A program made the translations under genes and the position numbers. The notes under the pieces are model-generated. The model did no database searches and was not told the origin of the DNA. It was given only the letters and a program-made list of their open reading frames with translations. Below, piece after piece: positions 23,254 to 64,000 of a stretch of 64,000 nt of DNA. The first letter of the stretch is position 1, and each line of letters begins with the position of its first letter. The DNA is from Candidatus Dojkabacteria bacterium. Its GTDB lineage: Bacteria; Patescibacteriota; Dojkabacteria; SC72; JAHDCA01. The stretch is taken from NCBI GenBank assembly GCA_030583845.1, contig CP129478.1, forward strand, positions 215,175 to 279,174. The letters run 5' to 3'.

Positions 23254-24537
23254 CTAAGCCTCGCCCAAAGTCACCTCTACCTCGACCTCTTCCCTGTCCC
23301 GTACGATCGTCAAAACGATCTTATCACCAGGCTTATAACTCTGAAGAATCGATACAAATGAACCGTCAATCTCAACACCGTCAATCTTCGTAATTAGATC
23401 TCGCCTCAACACCCCTGCATCGGCTGCTGGACTACCCTCGGCGACATCAACAACTAGCACCAGAGGATTATAGTTACGGTCATATACAACCTCATACTGG
23501 ATTCCAAGGTACCCTTTTACAAATTTCCCATACTTCCTATACTCGTCGATTCTCTGCTTCACCCTATTTATCGGCAGAGCAAAAGAGATATTGTCAGCAC
23601 CGGAAGTAGTTGCGAAGTTAACACCTACCACCTCACCCTGTGTATTGAGCAGTGGACCTCCCGAATTACCAGGATTCACCGATGCATCAGTTTGGATTAC
23701 ATCCTCATAAGTCTTCACTGTGCCAAAGAAGCTTTGACTACCGGTCTCAACTGATCTGTTTAGTCCGCTTACAACACCTTTTGTCACACTGCCTGCATAT
23801 TCACCAAGCGGCGTACCAATCGCAACTACCGTCTGTCCAACGACCAAGCTATCCGAATTACCCAGATCCATAGCATTTAAGTCCGTTGCATTAACTTCTA
23901 GCAGAGCTATGTCGTTTGCATCGTCGGTAGCAATATTCTCGACATCGTACTCCTGTCCATCGCTGGTGATTACCTTATATTCGACTGTACTGTCTGCAAC
24001 CACATGCTGGTTTGTGATAATCAAGCCACTTGGATCAACTATAAAGCCTGACCCGATATTGCTGCTGTCATCAACTACACCCTCTTCTGCATCAAAGCTC
24101 ACTCTTGAGACAGCGATTGTCACCACTGATGGCATGCTTTCTTCAACTACATTTACCACCAGCTCCTCTTCGCTTGTCCCTGGAATAAATTCGCTCACCT
24201 CTTCTTCGATTTCAACTGGTGCATCTCTACTTGTTAATTCAATGCCGAGCCGCTCCAAGTTATCACCAAATCGAGGGTATAGTCGTGGATAGTAGTAAAA
24301 GCCAAGTGCGGAGCCCACGGCGAATATACAGAGCAAGAAGAAGATCACGAATATACAGCCCATAAACATTCGTGCCAGACGATTTCCTCGCCTCGGCTTG
24401 CTCTTCGCAGCAACAGTTGCCGGAACCTCCTCTGTCATCAATGCCTCGACCCCCTTTTCAATCTCTTTCTCTGACATCTTCTCAATCTTTGGCACTTCAT
24501 TGCTCTTCTTCTCTTCCATTTTTGGACACTCTAACAA
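23254..24537 (-). CDS. htrA: HtrA/DegP-family serine protease with an N-terminal TM anchor and a C-terminal PDZ domain
   Basis: Catalytic triad context: TNQHVV, NDIALLEV, GNSGGPLLN. A PDZ-like segment follows. Confidence 0.8.
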   Translation of the reverse strand: MLECPKMEEKKSNEVPKIEKMSEKEIEKGVEALMTEEVPATVAAKSKPRRGNRLARMFMGCIFVIFFLLCIFAVGSALGFYYYPRLYPRFGDNLERLGIELTSRDAPVEIEEEVSEFIPGTSEEELVVNVVEESMPSVVTIAVSRVSFDAEEGVVDDSSNIGSGFIVDPSGLIITNQHVVADSTVEYKVITSDGQEYDVENIATDDANDIALLEVNATDLNAMDLGNSDSLVVGQTVVAIGTPLGEYAGSVTKGVVSGLNRSVETGSQSFFGTVKTYEDVIQTDASVNPGNSGGPLLNTQGEVVGVNFATTSGADNISFALPINRVKQRIDEYRKYGKFVKGYLGIQYEVVYDRNYNPLVLVVDVAEGSPAADAGVLRRDLITKIDGVEIDGSFVSILQSYKPGDKIVLTIVRDREEVEVEVTLGEA

Positions 24538-24548
24538 TTAATTTATTC

Positions 24549-25898
24549 TTACCTAAGCTCCTCAAGAGCTTTCTCTAGCTGTGGATCCTCACCTGCTTTA
24601 AATTGCTCATCGGAGATCTCTACAACAATATCTGGCTCAATTGGATTGTCGGTATTGAGCCAAGTGCCGTCAGGAAGCAACCACTTAAGCACAGTAATAT
24701 GCAGGCTTGATCCGTCTGGATAATCAATAATCGACTGGGCTGTCCCTTTTCCATATGTATTTACACCGATGACTGTGGCTCGTCCCGACTGCTGCAATGC
24801 ACCCGACAATATCTCAGATGCTGATGCGCTACCCTCATTTACAAGCACAACCATAGGGATATCGGTAAATCTACCCTCACGGTCGGCGACATACTCATCT
24901 CGTTGGCCAGCTCTATCTTCCTGCATTGCGATCACCTTCCCCTTCCCTACAAACTCTTCGGCGGCGTAAACAGCAGCATCGAAGAAGCCACCTGGATTGC
25001 CGCGCAGGTCCAAGATAATGCCTTTAGGATTCTTCTCTTCAATCTCGCTTATCGTCTGATCCCATATTTTCACCCAATCTGCCAACGATGCCTCTGTAAA
25101 CCTCGATAGGTCTATGACATAGATTCCAGATTCCTCTGATTCTTCGTAGCTCATGCTTGGCACAGTGATATCGCCACGGGTAATAGTCATCTCGCGATTC
25201 TTCCCTTCGCTCGCTCGATAGATCTCAATCTTCACATCTGTTCCTGCTTCACCTCGGATCTTCAATACAACATCATATATAGTGTCATTGCTCTTGATCT
25301 CTGTATCATCGACAGCGAGAAGTATATCTCCTGCCTTCAATCCGGCAGCCTCTGCTGGCGAGCCATCCAGAGGCGAGATTACAACAATTCTATTATCTCT
25401 ATATCCTAATTCTGCACCTATGCCCGAGAAATAGTTACCCGCTGAGCCTTTGGTGAATGCCTCTGTCTCTTCTGGGTCTAGGAAAATCGTCGCAGGATCC
25501 CCATATGAGTTCACCATTCCTTTGATAGAGCCGTAGAACATCTCTTTCTCGTCTACAGACATCTCATCGACATAGTCATACTTCATAGTGTTCCAGATTT
25601 TCCAGTACATGTCGAAATCCAGGGCGTTTTTGCCTGAGGTTGTCAGATTGCCCCCATCATCGTTGGTATCGCCAGTGAAATCAAAAAGCTTGCTGCCGCT
25701 GGTTGAGCTCTTGATGGACTCAGAGCTCCAGACACGCCCCGTCATCAAGCCGACAGCAAAAACCGAGACAACAAGGATTGCGATACCAACCCCGAGCCTC
25801 ACTTTATCTAATCCGTCGCTGCTTGCAGAAGAGACTTTAATCTTTTTTGGTGATTGTTCTGATTTAGTTGGATGATGTGATTGCTTCTCGGAGCTCAT
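24549..25898 (-). CDS. ctpA: Carboxy-terminal processing peptidase (S41 family) with a PDZ domain
   Basis: GIILDLRGNPGGF S41 motif and a TM anchor. Confidence 0.8.
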   Translation of the reverse strand: MSSEKQSHHPTKSEQSPKKIKVSSASSDGLDKVRLGVGIAILVVSVFAVGLMTGRVWSSESIKSSTSGSKLFDFTGDTNDDGGNLTTSGKNALDFDMYWKIWNTMKYDYVDEMSVDEKEMFYGSIKGMVNSYGDPATIFLDPEETEAFTKGSAGNYFSGIGAELGYRDNRIVVISPLDGSPAEAAGLKAGDILLAVDDTEIKSNDTIYDVVLKIRGEAGTDVKIEIYRASEGKNREMTITRGDITVPSMSYEESEESGIYVIDLSRFTEASLADWVKIWDQTISEIEEKNPKGIILDLRGNPGGFFDAAVYAAEEFVGKGKVIAMQEDRAGQRDEYVADREGRFTDIPMVVLVNEGSASASEILSGALQQSGRATVIGVNTYGKGTAQSIIDYPDGSSLHITVLKWLLPDGTWLNTDNPIEPDIVVEISDEQFKAGEDPQLEKALEELR

Positions 25899-48008: not shown

Positions 48009-48486
48009 AAGTTTCGTTATCTAGTGCAGCGTGATTATACAGCAACTTCGGCGTGCCAAACTGCACACCGACTCCAACCGCATTCCTCGATGTACAAAAC
48101 TTGTGGAGTAACTCTAGAAGCCATTGACAGCTCGGGTCAATTTCAGGAGCCCATCAGGTGCAATGTTTATGCTTCATCGCCTGCTTCCAATCACTACCTT
48201 CAGGCTAACTTCCAATTCCATGCATAGCACAGAACGCCGCCGAGTGATCGATAGCAAATATTAAACAGCCTTGTACCAGCAATATAGAGAATACTTTTTA
48301 CGCCGCTCTGGAGGCGCCAGCAATTCTGCGGATCAAAATAGATGGTTGGTAATTCTTAATGGACTGTGAAACATACTCCACATGAACAACGATTTCATAT
48401 GTGTCCTCGCAGACATATGTGGTGGCTTTTGCATGACGGCGGAATAGGTCGTACAATCCTCAGATCTAAAATTACTGCCCATCAGA

Positions 48487-49134
48487 ATGTTCAACAATCA
48501 AGGGACTATTGTTCCCGAGACCCAAACAGCCACAAATTTCATACAGTACCTAGTGGAATCACAAGGTAAATTCCCAACCCCCGAGTACTTCGCCGAATAT
48601 GCTAGGCTAGCAATACCAGCAGACGAAGACCCGTTTAGATATCAGTGCATAGTCGACGGATATAGATTAGCGCATGAGTCACCAGCAATAGAGTCTCGCA
48701 TCAACTTCATAACGACCCACCAGATCGACTTTAGAGAACTTGCAGAAGAGCTTCCCTTACATCTAGTTGATTATCACCTCGCGATTGCGGGGTTCCTACC
48801 GGGAGTAGAAGATACTACAAGCGGAAGTGCTAGCAAAATCTTCACATCAGGCGCCTATATTACTTCTCTTACCCATGGAAGATTAAGCGCTAGTCCCCTA
48901 CCAATGGCTGGTCTCGACTGCCTGACTGATAGTAAAGACCAGTACTGGGCATTACTCGTAGAAGATATTGGGCTTGGACATGTCGCAGTTCGAGCTTGCA
49001 CAATCTTTGGCCGTAATGAGAACGGATTATACCCTTTACGCAAGTCATCTTTAGGAAATCCACTACAAAGAGCGCACAGAAACAGATACCTGCTTGACCA
49101 CGCCAGAAGAATCAACCAACCACTGGAGTGCTAG
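48487..49134 (+). CDS. Hypothetical protein (215 aa)
   Basis: ORF only. Confidence 0.35.
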   Translation: MFNNQGTIVPETQTATNFIQYLVESQGKFPTPEYFAEYARLAIPADEDPFRYQCIVDGYRLAHESPAIESRINFITTHQIDFRELAEELPLHLVDYHLAIAGFLPGVEDTTSGSASKIFTSGAYITSLTHGRLSASPLPMAGLDCLTDSKDQYWALLVEDIGLGHVAVRACTIFGRNENGLYPLRKSSLGNPLQRAHRNRYLLDHARRINQPLEC

Positions 49135-49531
49135 CCCGATCAGACTTCGCCCGCTCCACCATGATACATCTATCAACCGAGCAGCTCAGACCGAGCTGCT
49201 CACACCTCTTGACCAACTCATCAGATTCGCTTCCCGGCTGAAACCACACCTTCTTGATACCCAGCTTGTCTACCTCATCTACTACGACCATTCCAACCGA
49301 AGCAGGCACCACCATCACCACCACGTCGACCAGCTCCGGACACTCTTCTACACTTGCATACACTTTCTCACCAAGCAGCTCTCCAGCATTCGGATTGATC
49401 GGATACACCTGATATCCACCCTGCTTTAGATCCACGAACACCTTATGCCCATATTTATTCGGGTCGCGCGAGGCACCCACTACGGCATATCTATAGGTCT
49501 TATTTATATAATCTTTGACTTCCATACCCAA
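49112..49531 (-). CDS. CoA-binding domain protein (YccU-like)
   Basis: YAVVGASRDPNKYGHKVF...VYPINP matches the CoA_binding_2 family. Confidence 0.7.
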   Translation of the reverse strand: MGMEVKDYINKTYRYAVVGASRDPNKYGHKVFVDLKQGGYQVYPINPNAGELLGEKVYASVEECPELVDVVVMVVPASVGMVVVDEVDKLGIKKVWFQPGSESDELVKRCEQLGLSCSVDRCIMVERAKSDRASTPVVG

Positions 49532-49535
49532 TAAT

Positions 49536-50855
49536 TTAACGAGTTATTGACCCCTGTACAGTGGATGGATCGTTTATCAGCCCAACAAATAGCAGCACGC
49601 CATTGTTCTTATCATAGATTGTATACACGAACGGCTGGTCGGCTATAAACGCAAATGGCTCATCGTCGAGCCCTACCGAGGTGACATCCACCACCACACT
49701 GGTCACGGCTGCCGCCTCACTCCCCTCCTCATCCACCTGGAGGTATGAGATATGTTGAACTTTAGACACATATAGCTCTGCATCAGAAATTCCACTCAGA
49801 TCCGCCACTCCCTCCCCAAAAGCATCCTCCATACCCATTAGGTTCAAGTAATCGTTTAAGATCAGATCACCGCGGATGGTAAACTTTGGCAATTCTACGC
49901 TGGCTTCCCCTTTTACACTACCAGCTAGTACTGACTCAAATAGCTCATAATTAAAGTCCGCTACTGATCCATCTCCTTTAGGCATAAATAGCCACGACGA
50001 GAGTGACTCATCGGCGTATGGCAGCTCAACCGCACTCCATTCATCTCCATCGAAGTAGTTCAAGTCAAGCTCACCACTGCTCATCATTGGCACCCGAACC
50101 TTTCCACCATTCGCTTTCGTAAAGTCTTTCTCCTCTGTAAGCTCTGGGTCGAACTGGTATTTCCAATCTGCTTTTGTATAGATTGCATTCATCAGTATTA
50201 GATATGTATCGCCACTAAGCTCATCAACCACCTTCGTGATCTTGCCCTTTGTCTTCTCAGATGCCCAGCCATTTATCTCGTCTAGAGTAGAGGCTTGGCT
50301 AAATGGCAGACTGCTAACCAACGCACCATAGTTATCGGTTAACTGGTCCAGATAGCTCTGCTTGATTGGTGCATTCACTCTGTTTTCAGAATTTGCCCAA
50401 AGTGAATTTGCGATGCTGATTTCTGAGCTCTCGCCGCTGCGGTTAAGTGAGGCATTTAGACTCTTATACTGCGCGGCTACCACTGAATCAGCTGAGTTCT
50501 CTATATTTAGCACACTCCATATCTGATCCTTCGTGTCTCCGGCTGCGCCATGTCCCAGCATAGCCAAGGCTGAGTGAATACTTACAGGAGATATAAAGAG
50601 ATTCTCTTCACATGCCTCTTGATCAGAGCTACATATAGCAGCAATAAGCTCGGCCCCGAACTGATTAGATGACTGAGTGATCACCTCTGGCTTCAGATCT
50701 TTGACATCGCTCTGATTACTATTTGGATCTTGTTTATCGCTCACTGGCTCTGCACTTTCTCCCCAAAAAATTACATAGAGGATGATCAGCAATATTGCAA
50801 CGACCGAGATAGAGATAATGATAATAAATCCATATTTTTGTAGAAATGTCTTCAT
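49536..50855 (-). CDS. Serpin (serine protease inhibitor) with an N-terminal membrane anchor/signal
   Basis: The C-terminal FIADQPFVYTIYDKNNGVLLFVGLINDP is the serpin signature (FxxDRPFLFxI...GrvxnP). Length about 400 aa after the signal. Confidence 0.8.
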   Translation of the reverse strand: MKTFLQKYGFIIIISISVVAILLIILYVIFWGESAEPVSDKQDPNSNQSDVKDLKPEVITQSSNQFGAELIAAICSSDQEACEENLFISPVSIHSALAMLGHGAAGDTKDQIWSVLNIENSADSVVAAQYKSLNASLNRSGESSEISIANSLWANSENRVNAPIKQSYLDQLTDNYGALVSSLPFSQASTLDEINGWASEKTKGKITKVVDELSGDTYLILMNAIYTKADWKYQFDPELTEEKDFTKANGGKVRVPMMSSGELDLNYFDGDEWSAVELPYADESLSSWLFMPKGDGSVADFNYELFESVLAGSVKGEASVELPKFTIRGDLILNDYLNLMGMEDAFGEGVADLSGISDAELYVSKVQHISYLQVDEEGSEAAAVTSVVVDVTSVGLDDEPFAFIADQPFVYTIYDKNNGVLLFVGLINDPSTVQGSITR

Positions 50856-50890
50856 TGATTTAGCTATAAATTAATTAGCTTCACAAAGAG

Positions 50891-63667: not shown

Positions 63668-64000
63668 TGGGCAGGTTCAAATACAAGTTTCTCTTTTCAT
63701 ACTAGTATTTTTGCAATACGCTGGCAAGTTTTGGAGAAGATTAAGAGGAGATGAAAAGTGGCTAACCTGTGGAGAAAAATGAGGATTCCATCGAAAAGAG
63801 TTGATCATGCATTCTACAGGCTTGGATTATTGAGGCGCTTTTGAGATCAGTTGGATCTTGAGGGCGCCGCTTCGCGGCATTCACGAGTACCTGCCAATCG
63901 CTCCGCTCTTGGGGTACTTACGGAACAGGGATGGACGCTCGGTCGCTTTGCTCCCTCTCTAGATAGACGAGAAACAGATTGTGCTCGTCTATACGCACCC

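Follow-up and report, generated by a model that had tools for sequence, protein, structure and literature searches.

The 64-kb stretch of Candidatus Dojkabacteria DNA analysed here (the window) contains the gene of a divergent new miropin-like surface serpin. With a probability of about 60%, we consider this protein to be an inhibitory serpin that sits on the outer face of the cytoplasmic membrane of Dojkabacteria (formerly candidate division WS6) and acts as a general shield for envelope proteins. An uncleaved N-terminal transmembrane (TM) helix (N-in, C-out) and an acidic disordered linker of about 25 residues would hold the serpin core outside the cell, where the exposed reactive-centre loop (RCL) would serve as bait for proteases. 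A serine protease, possibly also some cysteine proteases, attacking at or near Thr392-Ser393 would then be trapped as a covalent acyl-enzyme through insertion of the hinge into beta-sheet A. In this way exposed envelope proteins in general would be shielded against proteases of neighbouring or host microbes, and the giant protein encoded next to the serpin would be one beneficiary among several. The serpin would also be transcribed by read-through from the giant gene, in what would be a lineage-specific arrangement and not a dedicated two-gene system. The features of the locus are given in Table 1.

Table 1. Serpin locus and further genes discussed in the text, with their positions in the window.
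Feature	Position	Strand	Basis
Serpin gene, 439 aa	49536..50855	-	ORF with ATG start, PF00079, database identity, AlphaFold2, Foldseek
N-terminal TM signal-anchor, residues 10-31, FIIIISISVVAILLIILYVIFW	50763..50828	-	Kyte-Doolittle 3.34, modelled helix 2-31
Acidic disordered linker between anchor and core, residues 32-56	50688..50762	-	pLDDT <50 at residues 37-51
Serpin core domain, residues 62-430	49566..50672	-	Pfam envelope and phmmer against PDB
Hinge and RCL, residues 376-400, EEGSEAAAVTSVVVDVTSVGLDDEP	49656..49730	-	P15-P8 G[TS]EAAAVT invariant in 117 homologues
Predicted scissile bond P1-P1', Thr392-Ser393	49677..49682	-	Counted from P17 = E376
Spacer, 35 bp, giant stop to serpin ATG	50856..50890	-	No terminator, Shine-Dalgarno or good promoter
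Giant envelope protein, 4258 aa	50891..63667	-	Pfam, TM scan; upstream neighbour of serpin
CoA_binding_2 (YccU-like) gene	49112..49531	-	Pfam; downstream neighbour of serpin here and in close relative
HtrA-like gene, Trypsin_2 and PDZ	23254..24537		Pfam
CtpA-like gene, Peptidase_S41 and PDZ	24549..25898		Pfam

Identity and fold of the serpin

The original prediction that this gene encodes a serpin was confirmed by Pfam, as the PF00079 Serpin profile (MEROPS family I4) matched the ORF over its full length (profile positions 2-370 of 370, E 2.5e-95) with 320.3 bits at a cutoff of 27. When the protein was compared to the PDB with phmmer, 198 sequences matched at E<=0.001, and the best 60 of these 198 were all serpins or serpin-like. 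The highest-scoring sequence was conserpin (1.9e-54), while the best natural bacterial protein was miropin of Tannerella forsythia (6.6e-51), followed by tengpin (8.4e-36). The thermopin-type structure 1sng (2.2e-09) surfaced only in a search with the C-terminal fragment. An AlphaFold2 model based on an alignment of 117 homologues reached a pLDDT of 88.8 and a pTM of 0.83. It consists of a helix (residues 2-31), a disordered part (approximately 32-56) and the core, with an exposed loop of low confidence at 384-396; the low pLDDT of this loop indicates that the RCL is flexible and exposed. A Foldseek search with the model again placed native miropin first (5ncs_A, E 5.4e-37, TM 0.87 normalised to the target), and the best 50 of the 415 PDB structures found at E<=0.001 were all serpins. 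The gene thus encodes a genuine serpin, which is probably an active serine-protease inhibitor.

The family assignment as such is routine. A 100% identical protein in NCBI (P0001), encoded on a contig of 1,036,382 bp, is listed as 'serpin family protein [Candidatus Dojkabacteria bacterium]', and automated annotation has therefore already named the gene correctly. No NCBIfam model matched the protein, and Pfam detected neither a dockerin nor any other partner-binding module in it. PADLOC gave no defence-system match for the serpin or for the neighbouring ORFs of unknown function, and PHROGs gave none for those ORFs. On the opposite strand no ORF of at least 60 aa overlaps the gene. The GC content of the serpin gene (0.455) and of the giant gene (0.456) equals the mean of the window (0.459), so that there is no compositional sign of recent transfer.

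We also searched about 5.8 billion protein clusters for relatives. The only close one was P0002 (52-56% identity), and no sequence outside the clade formed by these Dojkabacteria serpins exceeds 39% identity to them. The accompanying statement that bacterial serpins are uncommon is partly true: among the candidates examined there were 2615 clusters at E<=1e-10, mainly of bacterial or metagenomic origin.

Hinge and reactive-centre loop

The gene had been recognised as a serpin by a C-terminal pattern that was read as hinge and tail. The peptide FIADQPFVYTIYDKNNGVLLFVGLINDP is indeed present (residues 403-430), but it represents the s1C/s4B/s5B tail, and the hinge EEGSEAAAVT (376-385) lies just upstream of it. 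From E376 to T385 the hinge agrees with the consensus described for inhibitory serpins at P17-P8, ExG[TS]EAAAxT (PMC8233489), with Ser at P14 and small residues at P12-P9. The spacing from P15 to P1 is the canonical 15 residues, and from P15 to the PF motif the RCL comprises 31 residues (25-33 in the family). The shutter and breach motifs are intact as well, namely NLFISPVSI (85-93), NAIYTKADW (223-231), LPKF (322-325) and VQH...DEEG (366-378), which we take to be the counterparts of S53/S56, N186/W194, K290 and H334/E342 of alpha1-antitrypsin. As judged from its sequence, the protein thus carries every feature of an active inhibitor. A terminator-like hairpin at 49672..49657 was dismissed, as it lies inside the coding sequence (in the RCL codons) and within the expectation from shuffled sequence.

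In the HMMER alignment, D390-V391-T392-S393 was aligned to V367-K368-T369-S370 of miropin. The predicted P1 residue T392 thus coincides with the canonical P1 T369 of miropin, and it also aligns with the P1 region of conserpin. A Thr-Ser pair is found at P1-P1' in 112 of the 117 homologues. Asp390-Val391 and Val391-Thr392 are alternative predicted scissile bonds; miropin itself is cleaved at three bonds, V367-K368, K368-T369 and T369-S370 (bioRxiv 10.1101/2025.09.05.674453). While the Thr-Ser of the two loops is shared, the V-K that precedes it in miropin is D-V in the Dojkabacteria protein. Since the key Lys368 of miropin is replaced by Val391, trypsin-like enzymes, plasmin and Kgp are unlikely targets. 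A Thr at P1 is an unusual specificity determinant, and the specificity probably leans towards enzymes that take Val or Thr at P1, either elastase-like or subtilisin-like.

Miropin (PDB 5ncs) belongs to Group T of Spence et al. 2021 (PMC8233489). Its hinge differs from that of the Dojkabacteria serpin by a single residue (GTEAAAVT in miropin, GSEAAAVT here), and both proteins would be surface-tethered, their serpin cores facing outwards. On the other hand, the overall identity is only about 31%, and the Dojkabacteria RCL has two additional residues on the primed side. The fact that the consensus-designed conserpin (PDB 5cdx) is the top sequence match in the PDB places the Dojkabacteria serpin near the family consensus, although conserpin is synthetic, has Arg at P1 and has, in the HMMER alignment, an RCL that is 6 residues shorter.

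Membrane anchoring

Membrane anchoring of the serpin was predicted correctly. The TM segment is a single hydrophobic stretch of 22 residues with two Lys (+2) before it and a net charge of -4 after it. According to the positive-inside rule this charge distribution predicts an N-in/C-out orientation. There is no Cys before residue 75 and hence no lipobox, and the residues following the helix (WGESA|E) are a poor match to an AXA signal-peptidase site. The protein is therefore most likely, as far as its sequence indicates, an uncleaved type II signal-anchored ectoprotein; cleavage by a signal peptidase, if it occurs, would release the serpin rather than anchor it.

Miropin is a surface-exposed lipoprotein for which a shielding of surface proteins from host and bacterial proteases was speculated (bioRxiv 10.1101/2025.09.05.674453). 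It is attached to the outer membrane of a diderm bacterium, in contrast to the TM helix of the Dojkabacteria serpin, and the lipobox that characterises the miropin-like surface serpins (Group T) is absent from the latter. In nearly all of the 117 homologues a hydrophobic stretch is followed by a Cys, which marks them as lipoproteins. A TM helix in place of the lipobox is also found in P0002 and in the serpins of Saccharibacteria (L075) and Nanosyncoccus (L080), so that CPR serpins appear to have exchanged lipid anchoring for a TM anchor. Apart from this shared helix the Saccharibacteria and Nanosyncoccus proteins are only 26-28% identical to the Dojkabacteria serpin. Their hinge is EEGIKAAAIT, with Ile at P14, and by this sequence they may be non-inhibitory. 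As a category, membrane-anchored prokaryotic serpins have already been recognised (PMC8233489).

The serpin contains only two cysteines, C75 and C82 (50610..50633), which are 7 residues apart and lie within a 3-residue insertion shared only with P0002. It is possible that they are joined in a disulfide specific to this clade, in the domain outside the cytoplasm.

The giant gene and the local gene order

The giant gene lies on the same strand, and the 35-bp distance to the serpin that had been given for it is exact. Co-transcription of the two genes, which was predicted from this distance, is plausible. The spacer contains neither a terminator nor a convincing promoter, and its RNA fold z-score is -1.03. 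Promoter-like sites were found inside the 3' end of the giant gene, and these are weak and not more frequent than in shuffled sequence. Read-through from the giant gene into the serpin gene is accordingly a plausible prediction from the sequence. The CoA_binding_2 gene on the other side probably starts with an ATG at 49525, which lies 10 nt beyond the stop codon of the serpin.

Only 3 of the 32 long ORFs of the window are preceded by a Shine-Dalgarno-like motif in the 25 nt before the start codon, and the genome seems to be largely independent of Shine-Dalgarno sequences. As most genes in the window have none, a missing ribosome-binding site is no argument about gene starts or translational coupling at this locus. 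The stretch of 333 bp that precedes the giant gene and runs to the window end (63668..64000) is interrupted by stop codons in each of the six frames. No Rfam family was matched near the serpin locus, and in 63668..64000 none even at E<=1.

According to Pfam and the TM scan, the giant protein has an N-terminal receiver domain, TM segments, tandem CSLREA-type right-handed beta-helix modules and Big_9/cadherin-like domains, followed in its C-terminal part by TM segments and CarboxypepD_reg domains. The receiver domain (PF00072) covers residues 11-117 (E 1.4e-08) and a TM segment lies near aa 219-237. Such an architecture, in which a cytoplasmic phospho-receiver is joined to a giant ectodomain of beta-helix/cadherin-like type, is unusual. 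C[ST]L[RE][AE]A motifs occur four times (aa 667, 1203, 1649 and 3025), at the head of the repeated beta-helix modules. A search with one module (aa 640-1135) returned only single-module CSLREA/parallel beta-helix proteins of 400-860 aa and no giants, and the protein looks like a tandem fusion of such modules. The C-terminal membrane module (aa 3900-4258) had no homologues at E<=1e-5, and an exact-sequence look-up of the giant gave no matching record.

Gene order in the close relative

It had been suggested that the serpin and the giant form a functional pair, and that this would show in a conserved neighbourhood. We therefore compared the window to the contig that carries P0002 (L001, 104 kb), in which the gene order downstream of the serpin matches that of the window over more than 10 kb. 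The flanking housekeeping genes show 70-87% protein identity, with values of 78% for the RecD-like helicase, 70% for the AstE/AspA-type enzyme, 87% for the DHH phosphoesterase, 76% for MgtC/DUF4010 and 85% for the CCA-adding enzyme; the CoA-binding gene (60%) and a 372-aa protein without assigned function (63%) have orthologues there too. Upstream of the serpin, however, the two contigs differ. No giant gene lies beside the L001 serpin; instead, there are ABC_tran and ABC2_membrane genes, of which an ABC transporter permease gene adjoins the serpin, and none of these upstream genes is present anywhere in the 64-kb window. In the 112-bp spacer of L001, a good sigma-70-like site (TTGATA-17-TATACT) is situated 36-59 nt ahead of the serpin ATG. 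In L001 the serpin thus stands alone with its own promoter-like site, and the giant-serpin junction is specific to the lineage of the window.

The same junction was found on two further contigs of the same species. As one of them (L002) is 99.5% identical in DNA, these contigs are not independent evidence for a pair.

At 52-56% identity, the serpin diverges faster than its flanking genes. Divergence from P0002 is distributed unevenly along the protein: identity is 12% in the linker and 47% in the RCL (P7-P8'), but 90% in the hinge and 80% in the C-terminal strands. This pattern would suit an exposed protein with a bait loop that tracks changing proteases.

A variable region was observed at 48481..49145, which could not be aligned to L002 at the nucleotide level, while both sides are 99.0-99.6% identical in DNA. 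It contains an ORF of 215 aa on the + strand (48487..49134) that has 33% protein identity to its L002 counterpart (E 1e-24) and no Pfam, PADLOC or PHROG match. At this position L001 has a 613-bp gap in which no gene was called. Between the genes of the CoA-binding protein and the RecD-like helicase there seems to be a gene cassette that was replaced or is hypervariable.

Serpin loci and large neighbours in other prokaryotes

Profile scans with an alignment of P0001 and P0002 yielded 79 loci in GTDB genomes and 56 in JGI metagenomes, in total 135 serpin loci, all at no more than 39% identity. At a few of these a very large gene is close to the serpin. In Marinilabiliales (L014, which equals L083/L084, and L026, which equals L090), the genes of T9SS-sorted giants (at least 3242 aa) terminate 274 bp before the serpin gene and share its strand. 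At L113, tandem serpins begin 409 bp after the end of an amylopullulanase gene (2293 aa, three SLH domains), and two archaeal loci (L050 and L138) encode surface proteins of roughly 2100 aa at a distance of 1.5 kb upstream. At L032 a 2721-aa SprB/PKD T9SS protein is encoded downstream of the serpin in convergent orientation. Without exception these large neighbours are surface proteins; homologues of the giant of the window are not among them. The Marinilabiliales giants were rejected as homologues on a best BLASTP E of 0.37. We also rejected L014 and L026 as independent support for each other, because their serpins are 83% identical and their flanks are syntenic, and count them as one event.

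In other phyla, two serpin genes were observed at L113 (10001..12511), L050, L042, L005, L012, L020, L022, L037 and L067, and at least in L113 and L050 they are in tandem on the same strand. The copies at L113 differ in the P-side residues of the RCL, which suggests duplication with diversified specificity.

These comparisons bear on the proposal that the serpin is a dedicated partner of the giant, co-expressed so as to prevent its cleavage or regulate its proteolytic processing or shedding. The shared strand, the short spacer with neither terminator nor good promoter, the identical arrangement on the two other contigs of the species and the analogous loci with non-homologous partners (L014, L026, L113, L050, L138 and L032) would be expected for such a pair. 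Against this stand the absence of an adjacent giant from the otherwise colinear L001, where the serpin has a promoter-like site of its own, the single event behind the two Marinilabiliales loci, and the searches from the giant side, which yielded no giant homologues. The one informative comparison, in which the adjacent giant is missing, does not support the claim of a functional pair. We regard such a pair as unlikely, and what was called a functional pair as at best a lineage-specific transcriptional arrangement.

A broader proposal is that serpins are recurrently recruited beside very large surface-protein genes in unrelated prokaryotes, as dedicated co-expressed guardians of protease-vulnerable ectodomains. 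The lineages concerned would be Dojkabacteria with the beta-helix/cadherin giant, Marinilabiliales with T9SS giants, the SLH-anchored amylopullulanase and archaea with Ig-like surface proteins. About 10 frames of at least 1500 aa were found in approximately 1.6 Mb of serpin neighbourhoods. Giant genes are usually quoted as roughly 0.2% of genes, and the apparent enrichment near serpins is only a few-fold over this frequency; it is suggestive and provides a lead. A distance-based control for such enrichment was discarded, since loci truncated at their ends bias it in favour of adjacency. The recurrent theme of a serpin next to a large surface gene is intriguing and would fit the precedents of miropin and of the cellulosome-associated serpins of Clostridium thermocellum and Ruminococcus, which are tied to a very large extracellular assembly as proposed protectors. 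The latter attach by dockerin-cohesin binding, however, whereas the Dojkabacteria serpin has a membrane anchor and no dockerin. Recurrent recruitment of this kind is quite unlikely in our view. If true, it would make the serpin a component of the machinery by which a CPR episymbiont with some 1 Mb of genome attaches.

Discussion

The data favour a general shield at the cell surface, and by analogy this idea of protecting exposed surface proteins from proteases would match what has been proposed for miropin and for the cellulosomal serpins. Other targets can be considered. The serpin may regulate envelope proteases of its own cell (the HtrA-like S1C enzyme, other secreted S1 or S8 enzymes) and so limit self-damage, as serpins inhibit enzymes of the chymotrypsin and subtilisin folds and an HtrA-like and a CtpA-like gene are both present in the window, as originally described. 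A link of these two genes to the serpin, on the other hand, has no support beyond their presence about 25 kb away: they are near-universal housekeeping genes without a synteny link to it, and no protease gene adjoins the serpin in the window genome or in L001. To our knowledge, S41 proteases such as CtpA are not targets of serpins. Regulation of the cell's own proteases is therefore very unlikely.

Little credence is likewise given to a role as a symbiosis factor, in which an episymbiotic CPR cell would use its serpin to neutralise proteases of the host bacterium, secreted or in the host envelope, at the site of attachment. An episymbiotic lifestyle is typical of CPR bacteria with genomes near 1 Mb, and the retention of the gene in a small genome (contig of 1,036,382 bp), its surface display and the fast-evolving RCL and linker would fit such a role. 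However, this proposal is drawn from such considerations entirely by inference, and it overlaps with the general shield.

Finally, a non-inhibitory function, e.g. as a chaperone-like or binding protein, is highly improbable: a Thr at P1 is atypical of the well-studied eukaryotic inhibitory serpins, but the small residues at P12-P9, the Ser at P14 and the intact breach and shutter motifs all argue for inhibition, and miropin, the closest characterised relative, is a potent inhibitor that uses the same Thr-Ser bond.

We thus favour a miropin-like inhibitor with a general shielding role. Only few bacterial serpins have been characterised, namely miropin, the siropins, the Bifidobacterium serpin, tengpin and thermopin, and in the searchable literature we found no paper on serpins in Patescibacteria/CPR. 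That a genome of about 1 Mb retains a serpin which is TM-anchored and apparently inhibitory suggests that defence against proteases at the surface matters to these ultra-small, probably host-attached cells.
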